The position numbers were made by a program, and so were the translations under genes. From Acetofilamentum sp. (lineage in GTDB: Bacteria > CAIWAD01), in the NCBI GenBank assembly GCA_020726405.1, contig DYSB01000001.1, positions 7,440 through 71,439 of the forward strand: 64,000 nt of DNA, in the 5' to 3' direction. Positions 15,765 to 32,052 of the stretch are shown here, one piece after another; the first letter of the stretch is position 1; each line of letters starts with the position of its first letter. Below the pieces are notes generated by a model. It ran no database searches and had not been told where the DNA came from. It saw only the letters and a list, made by a program, of their open reading frames with translations.

Positions 15765-16598
15765 CTATTGGATCAGGAACCAGTCCCGGAAGCGCCCGGC
15801 GCCCTCCAGCCAGCCCAGGGAGTCCAGGGTGACCAAGAGGGAGCCCAGCAGCATCACGGCGATGCAGACGATCTTGTACCAGTCCGTGGCCTTGAGATTG
15901 GAGAGCAGCTTGGGGTCGCGGCTCAGGTAGGCCGAGGCGGCGAACAGCTCCTCGCCGATCAGCGTGTAGTCGCAGGCCGCGATGAAGAAGGGCAGTTGGG
16001 TGACCTCAGCCGTCCCCGCCACCTGGATGGCCTTGGCCTCGAAGCCCGTCTCCGAGAGGATCAGCGACTCGGCGAAGAAGCGCCCCAGCAGCAGGTTGGC
16101 GGCGGGGCGCTCGCGCAGCATGATGCCGTTGACGCCCGCCGTGTAGGCGAACTGCTCATCCGAGATGAAACTGATGTTGCCCGGCTTGTGGTCTTCCGGC
16201 ACGCCGGCGTTGTAGAAGCCCTGGCGCACCATCTCTTCGGCCACGCTCATGACGAACGGAATGCGGCAGGGCACGAAGATCTCGGTCTTGTAGCGGGCCG
16301 CTGTCTCGGCCACCTTCCCCAGGATCAGCATCGAGGCGATGGTCTGAATGTCCTGCATGTCCTCGATGCCCGGCACGTAGAGGATGGGCCGGCCCATCTC
16401 CGTGCAGCGGCCCACGGCCTCCTCGATGGCGTCGATGCCCGCGATGCGCCGGATGAACAGGGAGCCGGGATCGCGCTTGATCCGCTGGTAGAAGTAGAAG
16501 AGCAGGACCACCATCAGCACGATGGTGCAGAAGACCGTGATCTGCCCGGCGCTGAGTGTGAGCGACCCCAGGGCGACCTGGGCAAGGGAGACCGGCAT
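15765..16598 (-). CDS. uncharacterised membrane-anchored protein (278 aa)
   Basis: Track ORF 15765..16991 runs through tRNA-Ser, so it is trimmed to the internal ATG at 16598. MPVSLAQVALGSLTLSAGQITVFCTIVLMVVLLFYFY (TM), a soluble middle, and C-terminal TM IVCIAVMLLGSLLVTL. Confidence 0.6.
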   Translation of the reverse strand: MPVSLAQVALGSLTLSAGQITVFCTIVLMVVLLFYFYQRIKRDPGSLFIRRIAGIDAIEEAVGRCTEMGRPILYVPGIEDMQDIQTIASMLILGKVAETAARYKTEIFVPCRIPFVMSVAEEMVRQGFYNAGVPEDHKPGNISFISDEQFAYTAGVNGIMLRERPAANLLLGRFFAESLILSETGFEAKAIQVAGTAEVTQLPFFIAACDYTLIGEELFAASAYLSRDPKLLSNLKATDWYKIVCIAVMLLGSLLVTLDSLGWLEGAGRFRDWFLIQ

Positions 16599-16761
16599 GA
16601 GACCCCCGGATTGTCGGATCGGTGTGCGGCCGGTGCAGCCGAATCGGCGTCTCGGCACGGCTCCGTCAGTGGCCCGCGGGTGGGTGCGGGCGCCCGGCAG
16701 TGTAACGAATGGTCGGGGCCGGAGAAAGGCTGCAAGCGGCGCGGCGGGCTGCCGAACCGGC

Positions 16762-16793
16762 CGGAAACAACAAGCCCCGCCAGGGCGGGGCTT
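16762..16793 (-). terminator. intrinsic terminator 3' of tRNA-Ser
   Basis: GCCCCGC / GCGGGGC 7-bp GC stem with 4-nt loop at 16774-16791. On the minus strand it is followed by UUGUUGUUUCC. Confidence 0.55.
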
Positions 16794-16797
16794 GCGA

Positions 16798-16888
16798 CGG
16801 AGGAGGTGGGATTCGAACCCACGGTGCACAGTTAAGCACACAACGGATTTCGAGTCCGTCCGATTCAACCACTCTCGCACTCCTCCGG
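16798..16888 (-). tRNA. tRNA-Ser (anticodon CGA)
   Basis: Reverse complement: GGAGGAGUGCGAGAGUGGUUGAAUCGGACGGACUCGAAAUCCGUUGUGUGCUUAACUGUGCACCGUGGGUUCGAAUCCCACCUCCUCCG. Anticodon stem ACGGA/UCCGU with loop CUCGAAA, long variable arm, T arm GUGGG-UUCGAAU-CCCAC, 7-bp acceptor stem plus G discriminator. Confidence 0.85.
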
Positions 16889-17246
16889 GATGCTGGTCAA
16901 CTGGTTCGCCGGAGCCAACGGCCCCTGGACGAACCACGCCTAACCAATCACCGGCGTCAGGCCGGGTCGAACGGGCAGCAACGTAACACACGAGGCAGCC
17001 GGAGCCAAGCTGCGCCGGGCTGTCCGCCGGGCTGGACAGTTGGGACGTGGCGTGGGACAGGCGGCGAGCCCGGGTCCGCGCACCTTGACGCCAGCAAAAA
17101 ATAGTGGCTCTGGGACCCCACTTTACGGGGAACCTGAATAGGCCTAAGTTCTGTTCAGCCGCTCCCCAAGCCTTTGGGCGGGTGGGGGGCGGTGGGATGG
17201 CTCGTCAATACTTACTTCCGAACTCCCCCAACAAGCTCGGCAGCGC

Positions 17247-17567
17247 TCAGCGGAAGGCCACGGCGGTCCCGCTCACGCTCACCATCAGCATGCTGCCCGA
17301 ACTCCCCACCACTTCGTAGTCCAGGTCGACGCCCACCACGGCATCCGCGCCTTTGGCCCGGGCCTGCTCCTCCAGCTCGCGCAGGGCCACTTCGCGCGCC
17401 TTCTGCAGCTCCTTTTCATAGGCCTGGGCACGCCCGCCCACGATGTCGCGGATGTTGGCGAAAAAGTCCTGGATGATGTTGGCGCCCAGGATGGCCTCGC
17501 CCGTGACGATGCCCAGATAGCGGGCAATGGGCTGGCCTTCAATACTCGGGGTCGTCGTCACGATCAT
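17247..17567 (-). CDS. YbjQ/UPF0145 family protein
   Basis: [46 protein letters not shown]... is the hallmark YbjQ start (internal ATG at 17567) and length (~106 aa). Confidence 0.8.
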
Positions 17568-18060
17568 GGAGCACCTCCGGTTGTTCACGTGTCCTGGCCA
17601 GGCGGGCTTCCGCCCGGCGCTCCCGAAAAAACCCGCGTAGCAGCTCGCCGCACTCGAGCTCGCGCACGCCGCCCAGCAGTTCCACCCGGTGGTTCAGCTC
17701 CGATCGTTGGACCACGTTGTGGACGCTGCCGCAGGCCCCGGCCTTGGGATCCCAGGCGCCGAACACCACCAGCGGAATCCGCGCCAGCACGATGGCGCCG
17801 CCGCACATGGTGCAGGGCTCCAGCGTGACATAGAGCGTGCAGGCCTCCAGGCGCCAGGAACCCAACTGATTGGCCGCGGCGGTGATGGCCAGCACTTCGG
17901 CGTGCGCCGTGGGATCCTGCAGGCTCTCCGTGCGATTGTGGCCGCGGCCGATTACCTGACCTTGGTGGACGATCACGGCGCCCACGGGCACCTCGCCCAG
18001 TTCGGCCGCCCGGCGAGCCTCGCGCAGGGCCATGTCCAGAAAGAGCTCGTGTGGATTCAC
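17539..18060 (-). CDS. tadA: tRNA-specific adenosine deaminase
   Basis: CDA-fold zinc motifs HAEVLAI and PCTMCGGAI; 173 aa. Confidence 0.9.
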
Positions 18061-18656
18061 CGCGGCTTCCGGCGCTCTTCCGGCAATTCCGCACGATGCA
18101 GCCAGCCGCTGGTCCCAGCGGGGCTCTTCACCTGCAGGAAGCCCTGGCGGCTCTCCGGGGCCAGCACCGTCAGAACCTGGCGCCCGGGCAGCACCTGGTG
18201 TTCGCCCAGCAGATCCTGCTGCGAATAGAGCAGCGCTCCGGCCAGGCTCAGGGTGTCGCCGGCCACCGGCGGTCGGCAGGCCAGGCCCCGGGCCAGCTCG
18301 GCGGGCAGCGCCACGACGCGGCCGCCCGTCCCGCTCGCCCGGACTTCCAGCTCGCTACGGTAAACCCAGACGCGCCGCCGGGGCTGGGTGTCCAGCGCTT
18401 CCAGCTCCAAGTGGTAAAACCCGCCCTGGACCCCCAGCACCTTGGCCTTGCGGTCCTGCTTGAGGGATTGGGAGGAGTCCGCGAAGGACGGGGCCAGGAA
18501 GACCCGGGTGGGAGCCAGGGTGATGGTCTCGCCCGTCTGCAGAGGCGCGCGGCCGCCGACGGGGAGGTGATCCGGCAGCAGGACTTGGGCGCCGGCCGTC
18601 CCCAGCGCCAGCAATAGGTTCATGAGCAGGTGCAAGAGCAGGATGCGTGCGTACAT
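18057..18656 (-). CDS. hypothetical secreted protein
   Basis: Signal peptide MYARILLLHLLMNLLLALGTAGAQV starts at the internal ATG (18656). No family recognised. Lies between tadA and pilD on the same strand. Confidence 0.55.
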   Translation of the reverse strand: MYARILLLHLLMNLLLALGTAGAQVLLPDHLPVGGRAPLQTGETITLAPTRVFLAPSFADSSQSLKQDRKAKVLGVQGGFYHLELEALDTQPRRRVWVYRSELEVRASGTGGRVVALPAELARGLACRPPVAGDTLSLAGALLYSQQDLLGEHQVLPGRQVLTVLAPESRQGFLQVKSPAGTSGWLHRAELPEERRKPR

Positions 18657-18744
18657 GGTCGACCTTTCGTTGGGGATCCCGGGCGGGCTCAAGGTACGCA
18701 GCCCGGCAGGCCTCCGCCAGCGCCGTTGCGCACCGGCGGACCCG

Positions 18745-19545
18745 TTACAGGCCCAGGGCCCAGTCCAGATAGGCTCGGATCCACTCCGGCCCCTGCAGCA
18801 GGGCCAGCCAGCTGCCCAGAGTCAGCCAGGGGCCGAAGGCCAGCTCCACGCCGCGCCGTTTGAGCAGCAGGCCCCCGATGCTGCCGCCCAGCGCGGCCAG
18901 GAAGATGGCCAGCAGCGTGGACTGCCAGCCCAGCAGCAGGCCCAGCGCGGCCATCAGTTTCACATCGCCGGCGCCCATGCCTTCACGCTTGAAGAGCAGC
19001 CAGCCCAGCCAGGCGAAACCCCAGAGCAGACCGCCCCCCGCCAGAACTCCCAGGAGCGCGTCCGGCAGGGCAGGCAGGCGGCTCTCAGCGCCAGCCAGGC
19101 CGCTGGCGCTGAGGATCAGGCCCAGTCCGCCCAGCGCGCCCAGGGTCGCGGTCAGCGGGTTGGGCAGGCGGCGACAGTCCAAGTCGATCACCGCCAAGGC
19201 CACCAGCAGCGCCAGGGCCGGCAGCCAGACCAGCCAGGACCAGCCCAGCGGCACGCGCCAGGCCACGCTGAGGGCCGTGAGCGCCGTCAACAGCTCCACC
19301 AGCGGATAGCGGACGGGAATCCGCCAGCCGCAACCCGCGCAGCGTCCGCGCAGGCCCAGCCAACTCAGAACGGGCACGTTCTCCCAGGGCCGGATCCGCC
19401 GGCCGCAGGACGGACACGAGGATCCCGGCCGCACCAGGCTCAGGCCCTGGGGCACGCGGTGGATCAGCACGTTGTTGAAACTGCCCAGCGCCAGCCCCAG
19501 CAGAAGGGCCAGCCACCAGGGCGTCCAGAGAACGAGGGTCTCCAT
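18745..19545 (-). CDS. pilD: prepilin peptidase (A24 family)
   Basis: N-terminal CxxC...CxxC zinc-finger pairs (SCPSCGRR, CAGCGW), polytopic membrane body, GMGAGDVKLMAALGLLLGW. Confidence 0.92.
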   Translation of the reverse strand: METLVLWTPWWLALLLGLALGSFNNVLIHRVPQGLSLVRPGSSCPSCGRRIRPWENVPVLSWLGLRGRCAGCGWRIPVRYPLVELLTALTALSVAWRVPLGWSWLVWLPALALLVALAVIDLDCRRLPNPLTATLGALGGLGLILSASGLAGAESRLPALPDALLGVLAGGGLLWGFAWLGWLLFKREGMGAGDVKLMAALGLLLGWQSTLLAIFLAALGGSIGGLLLKRRGVELAFGPWLTLGSWLALLQGPEWIRAYLDWALGL

Positions 19546-19718
19546 CCTGTCTCCTCACGTGACGGTGTCGGGCCGGCTGTGGCGCCGCATGCTCCAACTC
19601 TCCGGCCGGCCGCTCGGGTCAAATCTCCGGCAGCCCGGGGCCCAATCCCACCTCCCCGCGCGCCAAAGAAAAGGGGCCGGAGCACGCTCCGACCCCTGGT
19701 CGTCGTCGTGCGCGGGGC

Positions 19719-20966
19719 TTAGTAGCCCAACTGCTGCACGGCCTGGCCAAACTCGAAGACCGGCAGGTAAATCACAATCACGATGGTGGCGATGACCACA
19801 CCGATGCCGATGATCATCATGGGTTCGATCAAGCTGGTCAAGCGCGTGATCACCGATTCCACCTGCTTCTGGTAGAACTCCGCCGCCTTCTTGAGCAGCG
19901 TGTCCAGCTCGCCTGTCTCCTCACCCGTCTGGGTGAGCTGGATCAGGGTGGGCGGGAAGATGCTGGTCTTGATCATGGCGTTGGAGAGCGAGTAGCCGTC
20001 CTTCAGCATCTCCTGCAGGTCGCCCACACCGCGGGAGACCACGGCGTTGCCCACCACGCCCTGCACCAGCTTCAGCGCCTCGGTCACCGTGACGCCCGAG
20101 CCGAACAGGATGCCCAGGGTCTTGGCATACTTGTTCATCACACTGTCGTGGATCAAGCCGCCAAAGACCGGCATCCTGAGCAGCATCTGATCCAGCGCCA
20201 ATTCGCCGCGATCCGTCAGGGTCAGCACCCAGAGCCAGAACGCGATGAACAGGATGCCGAAGACCGAAATGAAGAAGTTCTGCGCGATGATGTCGGAGAG
20301 CGTCACCATCAGGCGCGTGGGAGCGGGCAGCGTTGCCCCCAGCTGGGTGTAGATGTCCGTGAACTGGGGAATGATCTTCCAGAGCAGGATGAACACCACC
20401 ACCAGCAGGAAGCCGAACATGAAGATCGGGTAGTACATGGCGCCCTTGACTTCCTGGCGCGTGTCCTCCACGGTCTCCAGGTAGTCCGCCAGATCCTGCA
20501 GCACGGTGTGCAGCGAGCCCGACACCTCGCCGGCCTTGGTCAGCGCGACGTAGAGGCTGTTGAAGTGATAGGGGTAGTGGGCCATGGCGTCGGAGAGCTG
20601 CAGGCCCTGCTTGATCTCCATGTGGACGCCCATCAGGGTGCGCTTGAACTTCTTGTTGCGCTCCTCCCGGGCCAGGTTGCCAATCGCCTTCTCCAGGGTC
20701 AGGCCGGCGGAGAACATGGTGGAGAGCTGGCGCGTGAAGAAGACCATGACCTTGAGCGGCACGTGGTTCTTCAGGCTCTCCATGGCCGCGTTGATCTTGT
20801 CCAGCACGGTCACGCGCTGCACCTGATCGGCCTTGACCTCTTTGAGCTGGATCAAGGTGCCCTGGTTCTTCACCACCTCCAGGGCGGCGTCGAAATTGGC
20901 GGCCGTCAGCGAGGATTCCACCCGCTGCCCGGCGGCATTGCGAATCACATAATTGAATTTCGGCAT
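19719..20966 (-). CDS. pilC: type IV pilus inner-membrane platform protein
   Basis: 415 aa GspF-family protein with two repeated cytoplasmic domains plus 3 TM. Confidence 0.93.
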   Translation of the reverse strand: MPKFNYVIRNAAGQRVESSLTAANFDAALEVVKNQGTLIQLKEVKADQVQRVTVLDKINAAMESLKNHVPLKVMVFFTRQLSTMFSAGLTLEKAIGNLAREERNKKFKRTLMGVHMEIKQGLQLSDAMAHYPYHFNSLYVALTKAGEVSGSLHTVLQDLADYLETVEDTRQEVKGAMYYPIFMFGFLLVVVFILLWKIIPQFTDIYTQLGATLPAPTRLMVTLSDIIAQNFFISVFGILFIAFWLWVLTLTDRGELALDQMLLRMPVFGGLIHDSVMNKYAKTLGILFGSGVTVTEALKLVQGVVGNAVVSRGVGDLQEMLKDGYSLSNAMIKTSIFPPTLIQLTQTGEETGELDTLLKKAAEFYQKQVESVITRLTSLIEPMMIIGIGVVIATIVIVIYLPVFEFGQAVQQLGY

Positions 20967-20976
20967 TCAGACCTTC

Positions 20977-22677
20977 CTAGAAGTCTTCCACCGTGGCACG
21001 CTTCACTTCCGCCAGCGTCGTGATTCCATTCATGGCTCGGCTCAGGCCCGCGTAGCGCAGGGAGATCATGCCGTGTTCCTTGATGGCCACTTCGCGGATG
21101 CGCTCCTGGCTGGCATTGTCATAGATCAGCTTGCGGATGTCCTGCCGCACTTCCAGCACCTCGAAGATGCCGGTCCGGCCGCGATAGCCGGAATTGCGGC
21201 AATGCGGACAACCCTTGCCGGCGTAGATCGCCTTGCCCGTGAACTTGTCCGGATCCTCGTGGATGGCCAGCCAATCCTCGGGTGTGGAGATCTTCTCCTC
21301 TTTGCAGTGGGCGCAGATCCGGCGCACGAGGCGCTGGGCCATCACCAGGTTCAGGCAGCTGCCCACCAGGAAGGGCGGAACGCCCAGGTCGATGTAACGC
21401 GTGATGGTGGAGGGCGCGTCGTTGGCGTGCAGGGTGGTGAAGACCAGGTGGCCGGTCAAAGCGAACTTGATCGCGATGTCCGCCGTCTCCTGGTCGCGAA
21501 TTTCACCGATCAGCAGGGTGTCCGGGTCCTGACGCAGGATGGAGCGCAGCGAGGCGGCGAAGGTCAGGCCGATCTTCTCCCGCACTTGCACCTGGCTGAT
21601 GCCCTCCACCTGATACTCCACCGGGTCTTCCACCGTGGTGATGTTCGAGGTGATGGAACGCACCTCGCTCAGCGCGGCGTAGAGGGTGGTGGACTTGCCC
21701 GAGCCCGTCGGGCCGGAGATGATCACCATGCCGTAAGGCTGGGTGATCCAGTGGCTGAATTTGACGTGGTCGTCGTCGTTGAAACCCAAGTTGCGCAGGC
21801 TGAACATGAAGCCCGACTTGTCCAACAATCGCAGCACCACCTTCTCGCCGAAGACCGTGGGCAGGATGCTCACGCGGACGTCCACCAGGCGGTCCTGGGT
21901 CTTGATGGAGAGGCGGCCGTCCTGGGTCAAGCGCCGTTCGGCGATGTTGAGCTTGGAGATGATCTTGATGCGGCTGACGATGCCCGCATGGCTGCTGATG
22001 GGAATGCTCATGGCCTCCATCAACACGCCGTCGATGCGGTAGCGGATGCGCAGCACGTTTTCCTGGGGCTCCACGTGGATGTCCGTGGCGCGCTCCTGGA
22101 TGGCCTGGGTGAACATCTGGTTCACCAGGCGCACCACCGGGCTGTCCGCCAGGTCGCGCTCGACTTCCAGCCCGCCTTCCTTGTCGTCCGCGTCGGGATC
22201 GGCCACGAACTCCATCTTCGAGATGGTGTCATGGATTTCCGTCGAGCGCCGGATCTTGGTGTAGAGCCGGTCCACGGCTTCGTCGATGGTGCGTTCGCCG
22301 CCCAGCCGGGCCTGGATGGGCATGGTCACCGAGCGCTTGAGGCCGTCCAGCACCACCAGGTCGTCGGTGTCGGCCATGGCCACCACCAGCAGGCCGTTCT
22401 CGATGCAGATGGGCACCGCGCGATTGGCCTTGGCGAACTCCTCGCTGACCTTGATCAGCGCGTCGTCGTCCGCCAGCAGGATGCGCTCCGAGGAGACCCA
22501 GTCCACGCCCAACTGCTCGGCCAGGCCTTCCACCAACTGGTCCTCGCTGAGCAGGTTCAGGTCCAGCATGACCTGACCGATGCGCTTGCCCATGTAATTC
22601 TGGCTGATGGCTTGCCGGACCTGATCCTGGGTGACGTACCCCTTGCGGACCAGGATTTCGCCGATCTTTTCAAACAT
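20977..22677 (-). CDS. pilB: type IV pilus assembly ATPase
   Basis: 566 aa GspE-family: Walker A GPTGSGKSTT, Asp box, His box, tetracysteine CAHC...CPHC. Confidence 0.95.
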   Translation of the reverse strand: MFEKIGEILVRKGYVTQDQVRQAISQNYMGKRIGQVMLDLNLLSEDQLVEGLAEQLGVDWVSSERILLADDDALIKVSEEFAKANRAVPICIENGLLVVAMADTDDLVVLDGLKRSVTMPIQARLGGERTIDEAVDRLYTKIRRSTEIHDTISKMEFVADPDADDKEGGLEVERDLADSPVVRLVNQMFTQAIQERATDIHVEPQENVLRIRYRIDGVLMEAMSIPISSHAGIVSRIKIISKLNIAERRLTQDGRLSIKTQDRLVDVRVSILPTVFGEKVVLRLLDKSGFMFSLRNLGFNDDDHVKFSHWITQPYGMVIISGPTGSGKSTTLYAALSEVRSITSNITTVEDPVEYQVEGISQVQVREKIGLTFAASLRSILRQDPDTLLIGEIRDQETADIAIKFALTGHLVFTTLHANDAPSTITRYIDLGVPPFLVGSCLNLVMAQRLVRRICAHCKEEKISTPEDWLAIHEDPDKFTGKAIYAGKGCPHCRNSGYRGRTGIFEVLEVRQDIRKLIYDNASQERIREVAIKEHGMISLRYAGLSRAMNGITTLAEVKRATVEDF

Positions 22678-22711: not shown

Positions 22712-22750
22712 TGATGAAAACGGCGGGGGCCCACCCGGTGGACCCCCGCC
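22712..22750 (-). terminator. strong hairpin plus U-tract between the Ig-domain lipoprotein gene and pilB (intra-locus attenuator/terminator)
   Basis: GGCGGGGG-C-CCAC...GTGG-A-CCCCCGCC at 22722-22750. On the minus strand it is followed by GUUUUCAUCACGCUUCACGAUUUCU; ~40 nt upstream of the pilB start. Confidence 0.5.
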
Positions 22751-22759
22751 GGAACTGCA

Positions 22760-25717
22760 TCAGTCGCAGGGACGCGTGACCTGAATGATGCCCACGTCCG
22801 AGGACGGGCCACCCGGCTGGCGGACGGCGCCCAGGCTCAGGTTGTAGGGATTGTACCGGTAGCAGGGCGGGGTGTCGTCGTCGCACAGCACGCCCGTGTT
22901 CTCCAGCACGTCCGGACAGATGGTCAGGGTGACGGTCACCTGGCCCATGATGTCCGTGATGCCTTCGGTGGGATCGAAGGTGCCGCCGTTGGAGCACCAG
23001 AACTGGATCAGCTGATTGCTCACCAGGCAGCCGTAGCCGTCGCGCAGCGTGGCGCGCACGGTCACATCCTGACAGGGCGGCATGCCCGGGCAGGGCAGCA
23101 TGGGGAACACCACCTGGTCCGTGCTGACCTCGATGGTCAGGTTGTCGTCGCGATCGCCGGGCTGGAAGGGCAGCTGGAATTCCGCCGTGCCGTCCGGGGT
23201 CTGCTTGAAGACGCAGACGTTGCCCGTGCGCCAACCCGTGATTTCTTCCGGATCGAAGGGATTCTCGAAGAGCGGGATCTCGCCGGCCGTGCAGGCCCAG
23301 GCCGTGTCGATGACGGCGCCGATGGCCTGGCAGTGGTACAGCATGTAATCCTTGGCCACGCCGTGCAGGTCTTCCTCGTCCTCGGCGTCAAAGCCCGTCA
23401 TGCCGAAGCCGTCCATGGAGGCCAGGTTCGGCGGATCCAGGAAGAAGTATACAGCCGTGCTGTCCTTGACGTCGTTGGAATAGCGATCCCAGAAGTGCGC
23501 GGCCCAGGTGACGCGCCACATGGAGGCGCCCACCTGATCGCCCGTGGGATCGAAGTCCAGCGTGCCGTAGGCCGGCGGACCGGCCACGATGGTCACCAGC
23601 GGATAGCTGGAATACACGTCGATGCCCATGTCGTTGATCACCGCGCCCACCTGGACCACGCCCGGCCGGCGGCCGGCGTTGATCACCATCTGGGCGATGC
23701 CGTTCTGGGACACCGCGACCAGCGTGTCACCCATGAAATGGACGTCCTCCATGCCCGGGGTGGACAGATAGCTCTCCGGCGGGCTGGCCTGCAGGAAGAA
23801 CTTGACCGGGATGTCCATGGTCACCAGCGAGCCCGAGGCGTCCACCACGCGGGCCTGCACCAGCGCCTGGGAGGCCGTGCCGAAGCCCAGGATCTGGATG
23901 CGCGGCGTGGCCGTGGCCATGGTGACGTTCACGGGCAGGCCTGAGTTCACGGTCACGGTGGAGACGTTGCTCCAGAGGGTGTCGGCCTGGGTGCCCGAAC
24001 CCGTCACGAAGTAGGCGCGCACGCTGCTCACGCCCGTCTGGTTGTTCATGCTGAAGATGGCCGAGGCCTGGCCCTGCTCGTTGGTGAAGGCACCCGCGGT
24101 GACCTGGCCGATGCCGTTGGTTTTGAAGCCCAGCGGGACGCCCGAGCCCAGGCGCTGGTTCTGGCTGTTGAAGACGGTGGCCAGCACGTTGCTCTGCAGG
24201 GAACCGTTGACGGGATTCGGCAGGGTCTGGTTGTCGATGCTGAGCGTGATGTGGTGCGGCGTGCCCAGCGGCAGGTCCACCGGGTAGTCCTGCACGTCCT
24301 GCAGGTTCGTGGCCGCGCCGTAGCCCACCAGCGCCACGCTGAGGGAGAGGGTCTGGCCGGCATGGCTCTCGTCGCAGTCATGCCAGGTCACGCTGGCCAC
24401 GCCGTTGGCGTCCGTCGTGGCCGTGGCGCCCATCTGGCCGAAGGTGGCGCTGAAGGTCACGGTCTTGCCCACGATGGCCGTGTTGGTGTCGTTGTACTTC
24501 AGCGACGCCCGCACGTTGGTAACGTTCTCTTCCAGGCACTCGCTGTCGATTTCCAGCTCGCCGCCCGGCACCGGATTGAAGATCACCAGGTCGATGGGCC
24601 GCGCGTCCGCCACCTCAAAGAGATAGTTGAAGGCCCGCCCGCTGGTGTGCACCATGGAGAGCATTAGGTCGCCGCCCTCGAGCTCGCAAGAGCGCCAGGC
24701 GAAGGTCAGGATGCCGGCGTCGTCGGTGACGAGGCTGTACATGCTCTGGTCGGTCAATTCGCCGAAGCTGGGCTCGATGTTGAAGCGCGCGCCGGCCACC
24801 GGGTTGTTGCTGCGGTCGCGGTACTGATAGACGAAACGGGTGGAATCCGAACAGAGCTGGTCGCCGCGCAGCTGCGGATTCTGGGGCAGCACGCGCTGCA
24901 GGCTGTAGCCGAAGTCGTTCAGCAGGTGGACGGTAGAGGTGGTGAAGAAATCCGAGCTGCCCGAGACGGCGGCCGTGAAGCGGATCCGCACCGAGTCCGT
25001 CGGCTGGTTCGAAGAATTGGCGTAATACACGTTGTTGGTGACGCCGTCGGCGCCCGTCACGCCCTGGGCGGAAACGACGCCCGCGATGCCCGGGCCCACG
25101 GAGGCGACACTGAAGTTGAGCGCCACGCCCTGCACGCCAACGCGCTGGGTCTCGTTGCCCACAACTACATCACGATAGGCGTAGACCTGCACGGGCAGGG
25201 TTTCAGCCGCATCCTCCATCCGATAGATGGTGCTGCCGTCCGCCGGGTTGAGGAAGGCCAGCTGGATGTCGCTCTGCTCGATCAGGGTCAGGCTGGCTGA
25301 GCCGGTCCGGTTGCCCGCCGTGGCCACGAAGGTGACGGTCTGTTCGCCCTCGAAGGCCTGGTCGCTGGGCAGCACGCGGAAGGCGTAGCGCGCCTCGCCG
25401 TTGTCGTCCGTCAGGTGGTTGGTCAGCGGAATCAGGGCGCCGCCGAACGCGGACTGCACCTGGCAGCTCACCGTCACACCGGCAATGGCCGTGCGTTCGG
25501 CGTCCAGCACCAGCACGGTGACCGTGTCGCGGATGGCCGTGCGCGAGGACTGGCTGTAGTAGACCTCGCCGTTCTGCACGCTGACTTCCACCTGTGCCAC
25601 TTGTCGGCCGCCCGCGCCCGTGTTGTCCTGGTTGGTCACCGTGCGACTGTCGCAGGCCGTCCACATGAGGGCAGCGAACGCCAGGAGCGCGGGGAGTAGG
25701 AATCTCAGACTCTTCAT
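22760..25717 (-). CDS. large secreted lipoprotein with tandem invasin-type Ig-like (Big) repeats and a Cys-rich C-terminal domain
   Basis: 985 aa. Signal MKSLRFLLPALLAFAALMWTAC. Repeated DxNGxAxx motifs (DDNGEARYAFRVL, TDANGVASVTWHD, TNEQGQASAIF) typical of Big_1 domains, and a Thr/Ser/Asn/Val-rich beta composition. The last ~200 aa contain 11 Cys (CPGMPPC, WCSNGG, LCDDDTPPC). Sits between pilQ and pilB. Confidence 0.8.
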   Translation of the reverse strand: MKSLRFLLPALLAFAALMWTACDSRTVTNQDNTGAGGRQVAQVEVSVQNGEVYYSQSSRTAIRDTVTVLVLDAERTAIAGVTVSCQVQSAFGGALIPLTNHLTDDNGEARYAFRVLPSDQAFEGEQTVTFVATAGNRTGSASLTLIEQSDIQLAFLNPADGSTIYRMEDAAETLPVQVYAYRDVVVGNETQRVGVQGVALNFSVASVGPGIAGVVSAQGVTGADGVTNNVYYANSSNQPTDSVRIRFTAAVSGSSDFFTTSTVHLLNDFGYSLQRVLPQNPQLRGDQLCSDSTRFVYQYRDRSNNPVAGARFNIEPSFGELTDQSMYSLVTDDAGILTFAWRSCELEGGDLMLSMVHTSGRAFNYLFEVADARPIDLVIFNPVPGGELEIDSECLEENVTNVRASLKYNDTNTAIVGKTVTFSATFGQMGATATTDANGVASVTWHDCDESHAGQTLSLSVALVGYGAATNLQDVQDYPVDLPLGTPHHITLSIDNQTLPNPVNGSLQSNVLATVFNSQNQRLGSGVPLGFKTNGIGQVTAGAFTNEQGQASAIFSMNNQTGVSSVRAYFVTGSGTQADTLWSNVSTVTVNSGLPVNVTMATATPRIQILGFGTASQALVQARVVDASGSLVTMDIPVKFFLQASPPESYLSTPGMEDVHFMGDTLVAVSQNGIAQMVINAGRRPGVVQVGAVINDMGIDVYSSYPLVTIVAGPPAYGTLDFDPTGDQVGASMWRVTWAAHFWDRYSNDVKDSTAVYFFLDPPNLASMDGFGMTGFDAEDEEDLHGVAKDYMLYHCQAIGAVIDTAWACTAGEIPLFENPFDPEEITGWRTGNVCVFKQTPDGTAEFQLPFQPGDRDDNLTIEVSTDQVVFPMLPCPGMPPCQDVTVRATLRDGYGCLVSNQLIQFWCSNGGTFDPTEGITDIMGQVTVTLTICPDVLENTGVLCDDDTPPCYRYNPYNLSLGAVRQPGGPSSDVGIIQVTRPCD

Positions 25718-25728
25718 CGTGGCACTCC

Positions 25729-27177
25729 TTACTTGTCGTTATCCATGATCAGGTCGTCCAGGCGCAGTTCGTCCTCGACCTCCTGGATGTTGGCCGGCAG
25801 CGGCTCGGTCCAGGTGCCTTCGGGCATGAGGATGTGCGGGGTGATCTGGATGACCAGGTCAGTCTTCGAGATGCGCTCCTCGTTGGAGCGGAACAGGCCG
25901 CCAAGGAAGGGCAGCTTGGAGAGAATGGGCATGCGATAGACCACGCGGGTCTTCTGGGTCTCCAGCAGGCCGGCGATGATGATGGACTCGCTGTCCTTCA
26001 CGCGTACCGTGGTGGTCGCCGTCCGGCGCTTGACCTGGGGGATGTCGGCGTTGACGCCCTTCCAGTCCACGATGGAACTGACTTCCGGGGAGACCTCGGT
26101 GGTGATCCAGCCTTCAGGGTTGATATGGGGCAGGATGCTCAGCTTGATGCCGACTTCCTGCTCCTTGACCGTGATCTGCTGGGTCTGGCCGCCGGCGTTG
26201 AACACGTAGCTGACCACGTCCACCACACTGATGTTGGCGGGGCGGTTGTTCAGGGTGGCCACGCGGCTGGCCGCCAGAACGCTGGCCTTGTTGTTGCGCA
26301 GCATGAAGTTCAGTGTGACGTCGAAGGCGGTCATCTGGCGGCTGAAGTGGCCGATGTTGTCCAGGTCCAGCGGCTGGAAGGGCGCCGTCTGGGGCAGGGA
26401 GCCCTGCGGGATCTGGATCTCATTCATCCACAGCCAGGGGCCGCCGGCGTTGTTCTTCCAGCCCTGGTTGGAGGTCGGATTCCCCCAATCGTCCGGGATC
26501 ATCCAGTCCTGCCGGACGGTCCCGTTCTCGGCCAGGATGTTGGTGATCTTGTTCAGCTTGCCCCAGTCCACGCCCATCAGTTCCTGGTCGCCCACGACCA
26601 CTTCGATGAGCTTGGCCTCAAGCATCACCTGGGGCGCCGGGCGGTCCACCCGGGCGACCACGTCGCGCACTTCCTCGAGCACCTTGGTGGAGGTGCGCAG
26701 GATCAGCGCGTTGCCGCTGGTGTCCACCTGGGCCAGCTTGGTCATGTCCTGGACCATCTTCAGCACTTCACTGGCCGAGACGTAGTTCAGCGGGATCACG
26801 TAGCTGTTGAGGCCCACCTGGGTCTGGATCTTGGCGGGATCGGCCACCAGGAAGCTGTTGCCCACTTTTTCGTAGGAAAGACCCGCCGCGCGCACCACCA
26901 GGTCCAGGGCTTCCTGAACCGGCGTGTCTTTGATGTGCAGCGAGATGCGGCCGAAGTCGTTCTCCTTTTCCTGGCTGAGCTCGGAGCCGGTGACAATGTT
27001 GTAGCCTGACTGGCGCGCCAGAATGGCCAGAATGTCCGCCAGATTGGCATCCTGGGCGTCAATGCTGACCCGGTTGTCCAGACTGGGAGTGACGGCCAGG
27101 GCCGTCGGCGCGAGCCAGCACGAGGATGCCAGCAGGATGCCTCCGCAGCAGATGGAAAGGAGGGATCGTTTGGTCAT
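25729..27177 (-). CDS. pilQ: type IV pilus secretin (short form)
   Basis: 482 aa. Signal MTKRSLLSICCGGILLASSCWLAPTALA, secretin-N domains, and a C-terminal secretin core (VVYRMPILSKLPFLGGLFRSNEERISKTDLVIQITPHIL). Confidence 0.88.
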   Translation of the reverse strand: MTKRSLLSICCGGILLASSCWLAPTALAVTPSLDNRVSIDAQDANLADILAILARQSGYNIVTGSELSQEKENDFGRISLHIKDTPVQEALDLVVRAAGLSYEKVGNSFLVADPAKIQTQVGLNSYVIPLNYVSASEVLKMVQDMTKLAQVDTSGNALILRTSTKVLEEVRDVVARVDRPAPQVMLEAKLIEVVVGDQELMGVDWGKLNKITNILAENGTVRQDWMIPDDWGNPTSNQGWKNNAGGPWLWMNEIQIPQGSLPQTAPFQPLDLDNIGHFSRQMTAFDVTLNFMLRNNKASVLAASRVATLNNRPANISVVDVVSYVFNAGGQTQQITVKEQEVGIKLSILPHINPEGWITTEVSPEVSSIVDWKGVNADIPQVKRRTATTTVRVKDSESIIIAGLLETQKTRVVYRMPILSKLPFLGGLFRSNEERISKTDLVIQITPHILMPEGTWTEPLPANIQEVEDELRLDDLIMDNDK

Positions 27178-27210: not shown

Positions 27211-27744
27211 CTAGAATTCGAAGTTGCCCTGGGACAGGCGCTTGGCCAGATCCTTGGTGGCGGCTTCCACCTTGAGGGTCAGGGATTGGCCGTTGCCGTT
27301 CAAGCGGACTTGATCGCGACCAATGTCCGCCACCTGGTAGCCCTCGAAGCGGTCACCCGCGGACACCACGTGGTTTTTGTTGCGCAGCCGGATGATCGCC
27401 CGGGGCAGGTCGCCGCTGATGATGCAGGACAGCCGGGGCTTCTTCTCCAGGGCAGCGAGGAAGTTCTTGTCGTCCATCATGATGTTCTTGGAGATCACCA
27501 CGCGGGACAGTTCCAGCGGATCGATCCGGCTCTCGAAGACGAAGGTCTGGCGCTCCTTCAAGCGGGCCTCCAGTTCGTCCACCGTGCTTTGCAGGCGCTG
27601 GTCGCTGCCCACGGTGATGTCCGGCTTGGCCTTCAACTCGGCCACCTGCTGGTGCAGGCCCCAGGCCTGCCAGCCGAACCAGCCAATGGAGACGAAGAAG
27701 AGGGTGATCAGCAGATTCCAGAACAGCTGGTTGTAGGTTTTCAT
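27211..27744 (-). CDS. pilP: PilP-like pilus assembly protein
   Basis: 177 aa: N-terminal TM, a coiled-coil, and a C-terminal beta domain. Positioned between pilO and pilQ as in canonical pilMNOPQ operons. Confidence 0.55.
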   Translation of the reverse strand: MKTYNQLFWNLLITLFFVSIGWFGWQAWGLHQQVAELKAKPDITVGSDQRLQSTVDELEARLKERQTFVFESRIDPLELSRVVISKNIMMDDKNFLAALEKKPRLSCIISGDLPRAIIRLRNKNHVVSAGDRFEGYQVADIGRDQVRLNGNGQSLTLKVEAATKDLAKRLSQGNFEF

Positions 27745-28448
27745 TTGCCCGCCTCCTTGGGGCTCTTGCCGGTTGCCTGCCCGACAGCCTGTACGTCGGA
27801 ATCGACCTTGGCACTGCCGCCCGCGTTGGCGCGCGCGCTGGCGGCCGGCTGATTGCCCGGCTCGTCCCCGGAGGCAACGGCGTCCGTGTCCTGGTCACTG
27901 CGCACCAGCGTCAGGGTGGACATCTTGATGGTGAAGTCATGCTTCTTCAGGTCGTCGAAGGTCCGGGCGAAGTTCAGTTGGACCAGGTCGTTGCTGACCT
28001 TGAAGAACTCCATCGTCACCAGACGGCTGTCCTTCTCCAGTTCGTTGAGCAGTTTGCCGAACTGGGTGAAGTTGCCCTTGAAGGAGACCTGGTAGGGCGT
28101 GCGGATGTACTCGGAGATGTTCTTGTCCCGGGGATAGGTCTTCATGTCGGTGATTTCGCAGCCCAGGCTGTTGAGCCGGCCGATGAGGCTGTTGAGGAAA
28201 TCCAGGCTGGCCTCCTCGGTCAGGCCGTCGCGCGTGGATCCCGCCAGGTTCTCGGAGATCAGGTTGGACACGCTGCGCAGCTCGCTGGCCAGGATCTGGG
28301 CGCTGATGAGCTTTTCCTGATGGAATTTCAGCTCGGCGTCCAGTTCGGCGATGCGCTGCGGTTTGGCGATCACCACGCTGCCGAAGAGCCAGCTCATGAA
28401 CAGCGCGAAGCCAATCAGCAGCACGTATCCGGTGATGTTGCGTTTCAT
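27741..28448 (-). CDS. pilO: type IV pilus assembly protein PilO
   Basis: Single TM (ITGYVLLIGFALFMSWLFGSVVIA), a coiled coil, then a ferredoxin-like domain. Start taken at the internal ATG MKRNITGY (28448); the track ORF extends to 28526. Confidence 0.7.
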   Translation of the reverse strand: MKRNITGYVLLIGFALFMSWLFGSVVIAKPQRIAELDAELKFHQEKLISAQILASELRSVSNLISENLAGSTRDGLTEEASLDFLNSLIGRLNSLGCEITDMKTYPRDKNISEYIRTPYQVSFKGNFTQFGKLLNELEKDSRLVTMEFFKVSNDLVQLNFARTFDDLKKHDFTIKMSTLTLVRSDQDTDAVASGDEPGNQPAASARANAGGSAKVDSDVQAVGQATGKSPKEAGK

Positions 28449-28468
28449 TCGGGGCTTCCTTTGCTGTC

Positions 28469-29077
28469 CTAGGATTCCGGAGTGATCGAGGCGTCCTTCG
28501 CCAGGAAGCGCGGCAAGACCTTGCACTGGATTTCGAAGAGCAGGGCCTTCTGGTCATGGCTGATGATGTCTTGGCTGGAGGCGAACTGCACGCTCTCGAA
28601 GTCCTGGTTGAAGAGCTGGTTTGCCTTGAGCTGGTCCACAAAGGCCATGATGTTGTCGATGGGATCCTGTCCCTCGCGCACCTTGTGGATGCCCACGACG
28701 TACAGGTAGCCCTTTTCGAAGCGCACGCTGGTCAGGGCCATGTCACGGGAGACTTCCATGCCCAGGCCCATGACCTTCTGGGTCCAGAGCAGGCGGCTCT
28801 TCTCCAGCTTGGCCAGTTTCAGGATGTCCCGCTTGGACAGCTTGTTGCCCGTGTCCGTCAGCTGCTGCAGGTCGGCTTTGACCTTTTCAATCTTCGCCTG
28901 CTTGTCGGCGATCATCTGGTCCAGCTGCCGGTTCTCCGCCCAGGCCATCCAGCCCACGCCGATGGAGACCAGGGCAAACACGATGAGGAGGGCCCAGCGC
29001 TGGTTGTCCAGCTGCTGCGCGATGCGCGCGGCCTTGTCCTCGCCCTTGTTCAGGTTGATGCGATAGATGTGTTGCAA
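28469..29077 (-). CDS. pilN: type IV pilus assembly protein PilN
   Basis: 202 aa; N-terminal cytoplasmic tail MQHIYRINLNKGED, a TM helix and a periplasmic coiled coil. Confidence 0.8.
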   Translation of the reverse strand: MQHIYRINLNKGEDKAARIAQQLDNQRWALLIVFALVSIGVGWMAWAENRQLDQMIADKQAKIEKVKADLQQLTDTGNKLSKRDILKLAKLEKSRLLWTQKVMGLGMEVSRDMALTSVRFEKGYLYVVGIHKVREGQDPIDNIMAFVDQLKANQLFNQDFESVQFASSQDIISHDQKALLFEIQCKVLPRFLAKDASITPES

Positions 29078-29078
29078 C

Positions 29079-30137
29079 TCAGTCCCTCCTCAGCGCCAGG
29101 CCCACGCAATGGGCGAATTGCGGTCCTCGCGCCCCGGCCGGAGCGCCTTCCATTCCGGCCAGCGGATCCCAGATCTCCACGGGCAGGGCGAACTTGTCGG
29201 CCAAAAGCTCGGGCAGGCCGGGCATGGCCGCGCCGCCGCCCGTGAGCAGCACTTTGCCGAAGTCGCTCTTGCCGGTCTCCTTGGCGTAGAAGCGCAACGT
29301 GCGCCGCACTTCGTCCAGGAAGTCCTCGATGACCGTGCGCTGCTGCAGGGCCAGCGCGGGTTTGCCGTCACTGCCGGCGCCGTGGAAGGCTTCCACGCCC
29401 TGGCGGCACTTGCGGGTCTCGGCCTCTTCCAGGGTGATGGACTGCTGGCGGGCCAGGTCCTCGCTCAGGTGGAAGCCGCCGATGGGGATTTCGCGGTAGA
29501 ACACCCGGCTCTGGTGCCCGGTGACGATGAACTGCGTGCCGCGGGCGCCCAGGCTCAGGAAGAGCACCAGGCCCTGGTCGGGCAGTTCCTGCGTCATGTT
29601 GTAGCTGTTGAGCAGGGCCAGGGGCTCGAGGTCCACCACGCCTGGCTTGAAGCCCGAGTCCTTGAGGATGGCCTCGTGCCAGCCGTACATCTTGCGCGTG
29701 GTGGCCACCAGCAGGATCCGGGACTTCTGCGGATCCTCGGGATCCTCGCCCAGGCTCTGGTGGTCGATGATGGTGTCGGAATCGTCCAGGGGCAGGTGCT
29801 TGCGAGCTTCGAAGATCAGGCTGGAGGCCAGCTCCTCATCCGACATGCGCACTGAGACGATTTCCTTCATGCTGGTGGCCGGACCACCCAGCGCCGACAC
29901 CAGGAACTTCACCTTGCCGGGATTGATGCGCATTTCGCTCATCAGCTCACGCAGGGTGAGCAAGGTCTCGGCACGGCGCAGCTTCTTGGGCTCGTAGCCC
30001 GTCTCGCCGCGGATCTCCCGCACCCCGGCCTTGAGGATCCGGGGAGTTTTGTGATGGGACTCGCACAGCACCGCCTTGATGGAGTGCGTGCCGATGTCAA
30101 GCCCCAGCGTTTGATTGGACCTTCCACCGAAGAACAT
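29079..30137 (-). CDS. pilM: type IV pilus assembly protein PilM (actin-like ATPase fold)
   Basis: 352 aa; LGLDIGTHSIKAVL FtsA/actin-like start; typical PilM length. Confidence 0.92.
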   Translation of the reverse strand: MFFGGRSNQTLGLDIGTHSIKAVLCESHHKTPRILKAGVREIRGETGYEPKKLRRAETLLTLRELMSEMRINPGKVKFLVSALGGPATSMKEIVSVRMSDEELASSLIFEARKHLPLDDSDTIIDHQSLGEDPEDPQKSRILLVATTRKMYGWHEAILKDSGFKPGVVDLEPLALLNSYNMTQELPDQGLVLFLSLGARGTQFIVTGHQSRVFYREIPIGGFHLSEDLARQQSITLEEAETRKCRQGVEAFHGAGSDGKPALALQQRTVIEDFLDEVRRTLRFYAKETGKSDFGKVLLTGGGAAMPGLPELLADKFALPVEIWDPLAGMEGAPAGARGPQFAHCVGLALRRD

Positions 30138-30174
30138 GCGCAGTGTCCTTGCTATTGCTGATCGCCCGAAAAAC

Positions 30175-32052
30175 TTACTCGTTCAATTCCGTCTGCCGCA
30201 GGCTGCGCCAGCGGTCGTAATCCGGCACCACCATCTCCGTCGCCACATCCTGGGCGCCGCTGTCGTAGGTCACGCGGAACCAGACCGGCGGCCCGCCGGA
30301 GAGGAAATTCTCGTCGTAGCGGTAGTTCTTCTGCTGATAACCGATCCAGGCCTGGCCCCAGGGTCCCACCGGGTCGCGGAAGATGAAGCCGCGGTGGGTC
30401 TGGACGATGGAGCCGCAGATGTGGATCGTCCCGCGCCGGTCGGCCAGGTCGGTGGAGCCGAGGCAGTCCGGCCGGAAGCCGCCGGGCACGTTGTCCCAGA
30501 CGGTGACGTTCTGGTTGGCCAGGCCGAAACAGCCCTCCACTTGGGGTGAGGGCGCGGGCACCGTGGCCCCCCAGGCCGTGGTCTTCCAGAATTCCGCCTC
30601 GAAACTGCAGCCCACGGCGAAAATGGCCGCGGTGATGATCACGTCCCGCCGGCCCTGGCTGCAGAGGTTGCCGATGTTGCTGTCGATGCCCGGATCGAAG
30701 TCCAGGCCACACTCCACGCCCGGGGTCAGCATGCCGTTGGCGAAGCCGTTGGCCAGCGTAGCGGCCACGATGATGTCCTTCTCGCAGGCCAGCCCGATGC
30801 GGTTGGGGCTGCCCAGCGGGACCATGCCGAAGGGCGTGTTCTCCGCGGGCGGGTCGCCCGGGCAGGGCCCCAGCACCGTGTCCTCGGTGATGATGTTGTC
30901 CATGATGAACATGCTGTCGCTGGAGAGCACGGTGACCTTGCCGCGCACGATGCCTTCCAGCCGGCAGACGCCCTTGACGTAGATCAGCTCGCGGCCCGCC
31001 CCGGTGGGCAGGTACTTGGTCTGCCAGTCCAGCCCGCCGCCGAGGACGAAGAGCGTGTCGCCCCCCGGCCCCAGGCTGTCGGCGATGTACTGGGCCACGT
31101 GGTAGCGGCTGCGGTCGAACTTGAGGTAGGTGGTCACCGGATGCTCGTTGCCGCTGTCGAGGCGGATTTTGTCCTCGTAGGTGTGGCTGGGCTGGCGCTG
31201 TTCCTTGATCTGGTCGATGGCGCGATCCGGCGGCCAGGCGATGCGCTGGTAGGGAATGATCCAGCCGCCCTGGAAGACTGACGGGTACAGGCCCTCGACC
31301 AGATTGATCACCGCCGGCTCCGTCTGGCTGAACAGGCCGTAGAAGATCGGGTTGCCCGCCGGGGACATCTCGGCGGCGCCGTTGATGTGCACGCGGCCGT
31401 AGATGCGTTCGCCCACGCCGAAGCGGACGGGGTTGCCCTCCGGGCCGATCTCGCCGTTGGAGAAATACATGAAGCGCGAGAAGTCCCCGAAGGTGACGCC
31501 CACCGCGCTGCGGTGCATGACGGAATGGTCGCGGCCCCGGTCGTCGCGCCAGGTCACCTCGCCCTGGGCGGACACGAAGTAGTAGGGCTTGGAACTGGAG
31601 ACGTCGAAGACCTTGTCCATCTTCAAATCGCGGTAGTTGAAGCGGAAGCCGTGCGCCGAATTCCCCTCCATGTAGGCATCGGCGAGGATGTCGTTGAGGT
31701 CGTTGGGCTCGATCCGGTTGTCGTTTTCGGAGCCCGCATCGGCCAGCTCCGGGTTCTGCATGAAGCGCGGCAGTCCGTGAACGGCCACGGCGTACTCCGC
31801 CGTGTAGCGGGCGTAGACCTGGGCGCGCTCGCGCATCAGCTGGAAGCGGTGCGAGCGGTTCTGCATGAAGTGCGAGGTGGCGATGCTCAGGGCCACCATG
31901 CTGAGGATGGCCGTGAGCAGCAGGATGGCCACACCACTGTCGCCCGAGGCGGCCCAGCGCAGGCTGGGACGGCGCTGCTTGAGTTCCTTCATGGCGGATT
32001 CCTCCCTCGAGGTCGGATGGAAGGCGGTTCCGGGCCGGCGGGGCGCGCTCAT
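30175..32052 (-). CDS. large membrane-anchored pilus-locus protein with Cys-rich C-terminal domain (PilY1-position analogue?)
   Basis: 625 aa. Chosen over the overlapping Arg/Gly-rich alternative frame 30152..32062. ATGA overlap with the upstream pilin-like gene at 32049-32052. N-terminal TM (GVAILLLTAILSMVALSIATS); the last ~200 aa hold ~8 Cys (GPCPGD, GLACEKD, VECGLD, GNLCSQG, RPDCLG, HICGS). Confidence 0.65.
   Translation of the reverse strand: MSAPRRPGTAFHPTSREESAMKELKQRRPSLRWAASGDSGVAILLLTAILSMVALSIATSHFMQNRSHRFQLMRERAQVYARYTAEYAVAVHGLPRFMQNPELADAGSENDNRIEPNDLNDILADAYMEGNSAHGFRFNYRDLKMDKVFDVSSSKPYYFVSAQGEVTWRDDRGRDHSVMHRSAVGVTFGDFSRFMYFSNGEIGPEGNPVRFGVGERIYGRVHINGAAEMSPAGNPIFYGLFSQTEPAVINLVEGLYPSVFQGGWIIPYQRIAWPPDRAIDQIKEQRQPSHTYEDKIRLDSGNEHPVTTYLKFDRSRYHVAQYIADSLGPGGDTLFVLGGGLDWQTKYLPTGAGRELIYVKGVCRLEGIVRGKVTVLSSDSMFIMDNIITEDTVLGPCPGDPPAENTPFGMVPLGSPNRIGLACEKDIIVAATLANGFANGMLTPGVECGLDFDPGIDSNIGNLCSQGRRDVIITAAIFAVGCSFEAEFWKTTAWGATVPAPSPQVEGCFGLANQNVTVWDNVPGGFRPDCLGSTDLADRRGTIHICGSIVQTHRGFIFRDPVGPWGQAWIGYQQKNYRYDENFLSGGPPVWFRVTYDSGAQDVATEMVVPDYDRWRSLRQTELNE

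Follow-up and report, generated by a model that had tools for sequence, protein, structure and literature searches.

What is a 985-amino-acid (aa) lipoprotein built of immunoglobulin (Ig)-like domains doing inside a type IV pilus operon, directly between the gene for the secretin PilQ and that for the extension ATPase PilB? The question is raised by a 64,000-nucleotide (nt) stretch of contig DYSB01000001.1 (assembly GCA_020726405.1, Acetofilamentum sp.), referred to here as the window, and the protein in question is named BIG. The BIG gene (22760-25717) lies on the minus strand, as do all parts of the pilus cluster for which coordinates are given below. Its open reading frame (ORF) begins with ATG, encodes 985 aa and is separated from the pilQ stop codon by 11 nt, with the Shine-Dalgarno sequence AAGGAG (25725-25730) overlapping that stop codon. 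The first-pass annotation, made from the letters alone, had described just this arrangement, a same-strand lipoprotein ORF 11 nt from pilQ and followed by pilB-pilC-pilD, and in this respect it was correct. However, its description of the gene as "inserted" was misleading, because in this type of cluster the gene is an ancestral component with a fixed place.

To begin with, a word-indexed search returned 16 close BIG homologues (41 to 100% identity, ~980 to 1,000 aa), all of them unnamed or hypothetical, and in 6/6 close orthologous loci the BIG gene was located between pilQ and pilB. Gene order in the close loci with context ran from a pilin gene through pilT, three ORFs, pilMNOPQ, BIG and pilBCD to a ~200-aa gene and a deaminase gene, while the outer genes varied. 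Of the 766 matches from a profile search over 1.84 billion representatives, most were generic Big_1 arrays. Five remote relatives, all of which carry the C-D-x-R motif described below, were selected purely by protein similarity; P0033, P0034 and P0037 align only to BIG residues 400-987, and P0051 and P0058 only to about residues 430-810. All five (5/5) occupied the pilQ-pilB slot of the same cluster type, surrounded by unrelated flanks. Moreover, a metagenome scan with patterns derived from the remote proteins alone (the remote-group alignment A4 was used, the 20-sequence alignment A3 being too diverse for a locus scan) recovered 49 loci, and wherever enough flanking sequence was available, the end of pilQ was found at most ~200 nt upstream and the start of pilB at most ~100 nt downstream. 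Across loci the GC content ranged from 33 to 64%, flanking genes differed, and spacers between pilQ and the BIG-type gene measured 11 to 35 nt; conservation of the slot reached down to ~20 to 25% protein identity. Scattering of orthologues away from pilus genes, which the first-pass annotation had named as the observation that would speak against its proposal, was seen in none of the close, remote or 49 flanked metagenome loci.

Regarding taxonomy, PilQ proteins labeled by their submitters as Marinimicrobia/Neomarinimicrobiota were 71 to 75% identical to PilQ of the remote loci. Near-identical copies of one orthologue of the window's own lineage carry conflicting NCBI labels (Cloacimonetes, Calditrichaeota, and Delongbacteria), and the distribution is therefore stated only as candidate phyla of the Fibrobacterota-Chlorobiota-Bacteroidota (FCB) group, the labels of the metagenome-assembled genomes here being Delongbacteria, Cloacimonetes, Calditrichaeota and Marinimicrobia. 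The comparison of gene orders firmly demonstrates lineage-wide conservation, and on this basis BIG can be regarded as an ancestral, fixed accessory of the type IVa pilus cluster in uncultured FCB phyla; a recent insertion is rejected because the gene order is ancestral.

Variation within the slot was also observed. In locus L013 there are two tandem copies, the second of which is a 688-aa copy (12595-14661) between the first copy and pilB, and in L012 an extra 853-aa C-D-x-R Big_1 lipoprotein copy (17600-20161) follows pilD. Clusters reached from PilQ on 4.5- and 4.1-Mb contigs (L065 and L066) have the order pilQ, a Wza-like gene, a 1,156-aa Big_1 lipoprotein gene and pilB; this lipoprotein starts with CDDS or CDEG and is 32% identical to BIG residues 670-798. 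In L067, a Zixibacteria cluster whose PilQ is just as short, the Wza-like gene alone fills the post-pilQ slot and no BIG-type gene is found there. The pilQ-pilB position is, in pilus clusters of this group, a slot for accessory genes. The Wza-like proteins (L065 10442-12124, L066 10376-12121, and L067 10500-12248) are 560 to 582 aa long and consist of Poly_export and SLBB domains plus a hydrophobic C-terminal helix, and as slot occupants they may link the pilus to polysaccharide export.

The protein itself starts with a signal peptide and lipobox read from the sequence (residues 1-22, 25652-25717; MKSLRFLLPALLAFAALMWTA-C, ending …LMWTA-C22), whose Cys22 is invariant in all alignments. It is followed by the anchor-proximal stalk of Ig-like domains D1-D4 (residues 38-482, 24272-25606), which the AlphaFold2 model renders as all-beta with a predicted local distance difference test score (pLDDT) of ~80; by the Big_1 core D5-D7 (residues 487-856, 23150-24259), which includes an AGPPAYG linker and a W-D-x-Y-S-N-x-V-x-D-S-T-x-V-x-F motif; and by the distal, Cys-rich Ig-like domain D8 (residues 857-985, 22763-23149). 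BIG is strongly acidic and lysine-poor. Pfam placed Big_1 above threshold (1.4e-20), with the best stretch at residues 885-932, inside D8 and the Cys-rich part, and MG3/MG4 matches remained below threshold. An NCBIfam scan assigned no family, and a profile search of PDB sequences with BIG gave no match at E values up to 1. The full-length AlphaFold model was all-beta, with about eight beta-sandwich domains in a string (pLDDT 74, predicted template modelling score [pTM] 0.36), and residues 585-985, remodelled with a 32-sequence alignment, formed a rigid all-beta three-domain module (pLDDT 91.8, pTM 0.78). Taking the ORF and the models together, BIG is a lipoprotein with a lipobox and an all-beta Big_1 architecture of about eight domains. 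One relative, P0004 (986 aa, JGI), did not enter the modelling alignments; where the C-terminal module would be expected, its second half has another stretch of N-terminal-type sequence, and this rearranged or chimeric appearance may be an assembly artefact.

Both models are all-beta along their whole length, and the best Big_1 stretch lies within the Cys-rich part; that part therefore consists of Ig-like domains with extra disulfides and is not a separate knotted domain. The first-pass annotation had placed the Ig repeats in the N-terminal ~700 aa and a disulfide-knotted domain behind them; the Big_1-type repeats and the 11 cysteines (11 of the 17 in BIG lie in residues 796-984) were confirmed, whereas the confinement of the repeats and the knot were not. 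Only C876, C945, C952 and C984 are invariant among those 11, and further invariant cysteines lie in the mid-domains (C289-C344 and C394-C448). The recurring D-x-N-G-x-A motif that had also been described is present in its strict form only twice, while there are six copies of the looser T-[DN]-x-x-G, the usual signature of Big_1. The BIG model contains neither a lectin-like tip nor a knot. Among solved structures, BIG came nearest to surface adhesins, namely intimin, invasin, InvE and FdeC, and the values of the comparison were 12.4 for the C-terminal Ig domains of GH2, 12.4 for intimin D0-D1, 11.8 for invasin, 11.4 for InvE, 10.6 for FdeC and about 10 for macroglobulin (MG) domains. Foldseek with the full-length model retrieved generic Ig/MG arrays only (ciliary, complement, alpha-2-macroglobulin, and S-layer proteins) with template modelling (TM) scores of ≤0.18, and these model-based matches are uninformative about BIG function.

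Sequence conservation differed along the protein. In an alignment of 20 family members (20 to 53% identity), 17 columns were invariant, including Cys22, Asp23 and Arg25; invariant and near-invariant columns lay mostly in D5-D7, the region that all remote relatives match. D8 is the least conserved domain in the close family (44.5% on average, against 54 to 65% for the other domains), and in the wider family the anchor-proximal half is unalignable and the total length ranges from 650 to 1,781 aa. P0008 and P0028 contain a duplicated domain pair in the D1-D4 region. Between L001 and the window, identities were 41% for BIG, 46% for PilD, 52 to 55% for PilN/PilO/PilP, 62% for PilM, 65% for PilQ, 68% for PilC, 69% for PilB and 77% for PilT, and BIG evolves faster than any other large protein encoded there. 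The giant Big_1 relatives P0031, P0044, P0045 and P0055 were screened for C-terminal domains of type IX secretion, which would hint at an extracellular location, and none was found.

Directly at the lipobox, Cys22-Asp23-Ser24-Arg25 (25643-25654) forms a C-D-x-R motif, a candidate sorting or hand-over signal. Forty-three of the 45 metagenome relatives with an intact N terminus carry it, mostly as CDDR[ILVT]P or CDTRxP, and the two exceptions, which read CDEQ, are duplicate copies of one locus; it is also carried by about 65 of the best 150 of the 766 profile matches. Outside pilus clusters, P0032 (L010, 428-1750), a free-standing C-terminal module of 440 aa, starts with CDTAPP and P0065 with CEDEII, both without the Arg. 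The Asp at +2 is the deepest conserved feature, since the L065 and L066 lipoproteins (CDDS and CDEG) keep it. More generally, P0032, P0040 and P0041 are 424- to 440-aa lipoproteins made of the C-terminal module only (residues 617-988) that start with C-D or C-E and have no Arg(+4).

How, then, might such a protein serve a pilus? The reading that we favor, tentatively and at somewhat less than an even chance, is that BIG is a surface adhesin delivered by the pilus machine through the adjacent PilQ secretin, with C-D-x-R as its sorting signal; that BIG reaches the surface, that it gets there through PilQ, that C-D-x-R sorts it and that it is an adhesin are all what we infer from sequence, models and analogy. 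BIG would be exported by Sec and then acylated at Cys22, whereupon the invariant Asp(+2)/Arg(+4) would divert it from the default lipoprotein route and mark it for the pilus machine. It would next traverse the neighboring PilQ secretin, with the force supplied by pilus or pseudopilus extension, and would end up lipid-anchored on the cell surface, bearing an Ig stalk of varying length. Its conserved D5-D7 core and fast-evolving D8 tip would then provide adhesion alongside the retractile pilus. An adhesin is suggested because length and copy number vary, evolution is fast, the tip is the most variable part, and the nearest structures are surface adhesins. Export through PilQ is suggested because a sister machine, type II secretion, displays the lipoproteins PulA and InvL on the surface, and C-D-x-R is proposed as the signal because it is invariant and tracks location in the pilus cluster. 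The constant pilQ-BIG-pilB order amid differing flanks and the secretin of the Zixibacteria cluster, which manages without BIG, also count in favor of this reading.

The precedent from type II secretion deserves a closer comparison. PulA and InvL are moved through the secretin to the surface by this system, and InvL of Acinetobacter baumannii is an invasin-like Ig adhesin without a beta-barrel (PMC9245377, PMC12802150). Type II lipoprotein display depends on a motif immediately behind the lipobox Cys, and Asp(+2) of PulA blocks Lol sorting (PMC12802150). BIG shares with PulA, InvL and SslE a lipobox anchor and a secretin-containing type IV filament machine, and with InvL invasin-like Ig domains without a beta-barrel; its conserved C-D-x-R, a putative sorting signal, has the Asp(+2) of PulA. 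SslE likewise has Asp at +2, and both PulA and SslE are encoded beside their own machines. Unlike in these three systems, the BIG machine is a type IVa pilus with PilT, PilMNOP and a PilB-type ATPase, the motif is C-D-x-R and not GGG or ND(N/D), there is no lectin-like tip, BIG occupies a fixed slot inside the operon, and its export itself is predicted. The tandem Big_1 Ig domains also recall the inverse autotransporters intimin and invasin (including FdeC, InvD and InvE). However, BIG differs from intimin and invasin in having a lipid anchor, no N-terminal beta-barrel (no barrel match in Pfam or NCBIfam) and no LysM, as well as no C-terminal C-type-lectin-like tip, a tip not found in all inverse autotransporters. 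TcpF and CofJ are small soluble non-pilin proteins in type IVb pilus operons that exit the cell via that machine. BIG is similarly a non-pilin product of a type IV pilus operon, with its export predicted, whereas TcpF and CofJ are neither lipoproteins nor Ig arrays and belong to type IVb systems.

Several points weigh against delivery through PilQ. PilT and PilMNOP indicate a retractile type IVa pilus rather than type II secretion, and lipoprotein export by such a pilus is without direct precedent. C-D-x-R differs from the Acinetobacter motifs GGG or ND(N/D), and a GspN/AsmA-like gene is not a regular member of the cluster. Retention by Asp(+2) is a rule worked out in Enterobacteria, and the phyla that carry BIG may not follow it. 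Only three non-family lipoproteins were detected in ~1 Mb of fetched loci, too few to establish that unrelated lipoproteins of these genomes lack C-D-x-R. Finally, strict adjacency to pilQ (11 to 35 nt), mostly single copies and a rigid C-terminal module (pTM 0.78) would equally suit a stoichiometric part of the machine.

This last point leads to the strongest alternative, which we consider possible though on balance unlikely: BIG may be a periplasmic structural accessory that binds the short PilQ, or else PilP/PilO, through its conserved C-terminal module and stabilizes, aligns or gates the channel, comparable to TsaP, pilotins or GspB. The BIG-type gene always lies directly 3' of pilQ behind a short spacer, its ribosome binding site overlaps the pilQ stop in the window, and it occurs in every cluster of the clade sampled via the protein. 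PilQ lacks AMIN or other extensions across all these clusters, the three-domain module is both rigid and conserved, and bacterial alpha-2-macroglobulins, which are also among the structural matches, are periplasmic lipoproteins. On the other hand, a threefold length range, tandem copies and domain duplications would be unusual for a part of a fixed periplasmic geometry, and no other large protein of the cluster evolves as fast. The Zixibacteria cluster manages with the same short PilQ and without a BIG-type gene, so that the secretin does not need BIG, which also weakens the earlier idea that BIG compensates for a short PilQ. SlkA and SlkB are secretin plugs (PMC13392014). Like TsaP and the pilotins PilF/PilW/Tgl and GspS/AspS, they assist a secretin of a type IV pilus or of type II secretion, as BIG would in such a role, and some of these accessories are lipoproteins; unlike BIG, these partners are LysM/FlgT-like, TPR or small plug proteins of small, constant size, and they share no sequence similarity with it. 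Pfam and NCBIfam scans of BIG returned no LysM (the hallmark of TsaP) or related domain, no TPR and no other known secretin-partner domain. A pilotin role, which the first-pass annotation had offered as a candidate, is rejected, as pilotins are small and constant in size while the BIG family spans 650 to 1,781 aa with tandem copies, and 985 aa of all-beta Ig-like fold without a TPR match is the wrong size and the wrong fold.

Less probable still, and in our view decidedly so, is a surface or outer-membrane adhesin that works with the pilus and reaches its place by a PilQ-independent route, such as lineage-specific lipoprotein export, the operon being kept for co-expression. Its adhesin-like fold and evolution would suit this as well, and, according to the background part of PMC12802150, Bacteroidota and relatives expose many lipoproteins by means of signals just after the lipobox Cys. 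However, co-expression alone rarely fixes one exact slot over such divergence, and C-D-x-R tracks pilus-cluster location and not the class of Big_1 lipoproteins, with relatives outside the cluster lacking the Arg. An alpha-2-macroglobulin-like periplasmic protease trap, or a mere neighbor without a functional tie to the pilus, is very improbable, for although the subthreshold MG3/MG4 matches and the Foldseek matches to the lipoprotein alpha-2-macroglobulins of Escherichia coli and Salmonella point to a trap, BIG is ~600 aa shorter and has no CxEQ motif, thioester or bait region, the TM scores of ≤0.18 are at the level of a generic Ig match, and the gene order is kept despite unrelated flanks. 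A thioester alpha-2-macroglobulin in the strict sense is rejected outright, the CxEQ thioester motif not being found in the BIG sequence, which at 985 aa falls well short of the ~1,600 aa or more of such proteins and for which Foldseek TM scores against this class were ≤0.12, and a PilY1-like tip adhesin is likewise rejected, there being no beta-propeller (Neisseria_PilC) Pfam match and only beta-sandwiches in the model.

Returning to BIG as an adhesin exported through PilQ, a broader and more doubtful proposition would be that the retractile type IVa pilus widespread in Marinimicrobia-like and related uncultured FCB phyla doubles as a surface-display system for lipoproteins, with BIG as dedicated cargo and acyl-Cys-Asp-x-Arg as signal. 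If true, a type IVa pilus would for the first time be credited with lipoprotein export in the manner of type II secretion, and a new lipoprotein sorting code would be added. Neither Big_1 domains nor adhesins encoded with a machine are new as such; what is new is their coming together with a C-D-x-R lipid anchor, a type IVa pilus machine and a fixed position between pilQ and pilB. The whole protein has no Pfam or NCBIfam family and no source name beyond "hypothetical protein", and no paper within the literature searched describes it. Few bacterial nanomachines have been studied as well as type IV pili, yet their part lists rest on a few proteobacterial, myxobacterial and Thermus models. BIG adds to them a component whose presence in the cluster is strictly conserved in uncultured lineages abundant in the environment, marine Marinimicrobia-like bacteria among them. 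It is recognizable, and can already be annotated, by its C-D-x-R lipobox, its Big_1 array and its place between pilQ and pilB. Should the export model be true, it would link pilus machines with type II-style lipoprotein display and offer a simple, mutable sorting motif for probing how acylated proteins pass a secretin, a question that is open even for PulA and InvL; should BIG instead be a scaffold, it would represent a new kind of secretin partner.

The remaining features of the locus concern the pilus cluster itself. A terminator-like hairpin followed by TTTT lies between BIG and pilB (22717-22751), 3' of the BIG stop; its stem at 22751-22721 has 14 pairs (12 G-C) and a computed folding energy of -35.6 kcal/mol. 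The first-pass annotation had noted this hairpin and its T-run and proposed that BIG and pilBCD are partly uncoupled. Both elements are real, and they are compatible with a transcriptional break ahead of pilBCD. Equivalent post-BIG hairpins with different stem sequences occur in L001-L005, with a T-run after four of the five (not L004), so that in the high-GC close lineage the structure recurs and the sequence does not. The low-GC group has spacers of 13 to 48 nt after the BIG-type gene and no hairpin. Another terminator-like hairpin, with 11 pairs followed by TTTCTTT, is located between pilC and pilD (19697-19672).

Upstream of BIG, pilQ (25729-27177) encodes a 482-aa secretin with STN/N0, Secretin_N/N1 and Secretin domains only; it spans the entire TIGR02515 core and is free of AMIN domains and of any N-terminal extension, in agreement with the earlier remark on its shortness. 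The block from pilM to the PilP gene (27211-30137) is syntenic across all related loci and consists of pilM (29079-30137), a pilN-like gene (28469-29077), pilO (within 27741-28526) and a PilP/GspC-like gene (27211-27744) whose product has an N-terminal membrane helix in place of a lipobox. Next to it, 5' of pilM, lies the ATG-initiated gene of a 625-aa protein (30175-32052), which has an N-terminal membrane helix and a Cys-rich C terminus and is kept upstream of pilM in all related clusters; its DUF4900 match is weak in the window and clear at the equivalent position in L065 and L066. For the pilus tip, a role that had earlier been considered for BIG, the 625-aa protein is the better candidate. 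The listed 636-aa GTG ORF at 30152-32062 is an Arg/Pro/Gly-rich wrong-frame shadow of the 625-aa gene. Further upstream are two paralogous minor-pilin-like genes in tandem with a 4-nt overlap (about 32049-32690 and 32687-33439), a 151-aa ORF (33445-33900), pilT (33925-34992) and the gene of the 135-aa major pilin (35151-35558; MKFRKDERG/FTLVEV). Related loci hold a single gene (~200 to 220 aa) where the window has the two minor-pilin-like paralogues. The presence of PilT and PilMNOPQ identifies the cluster as that of a type IVa pilus.

Downstream, pilB (20977-22677) encodes the extension ATPase, followed by the genes of the platform protein PilC (19719-20966) and the prepilin peptidase PilD (18745-19545). 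The N terminus of PilB carries an MshEN-type motif for binding cyclic di-GMP (NF053729, 1.5e-12), suggesting that pilus extension may be under cyclic di-GMP control. After pilD, the close lineage (the window at 17539-18692, L001, and L002) has a ~200-aa gene with a weak SH3_3 match and then a TadA-like deaminase gene, and the same pair adjoins the non-pilus Big_1 relative P0065 in L015. Beyond it, a tRNA-Ser(CGA) gene (16796-16887, minus strand) sits in the 5' part of the longest ORF (15765-16991) of a DUF6754 protein; as the DUF6754 Pfam match begins at residue 150, the true start of that gene must be further downstream than the start of this ORF.

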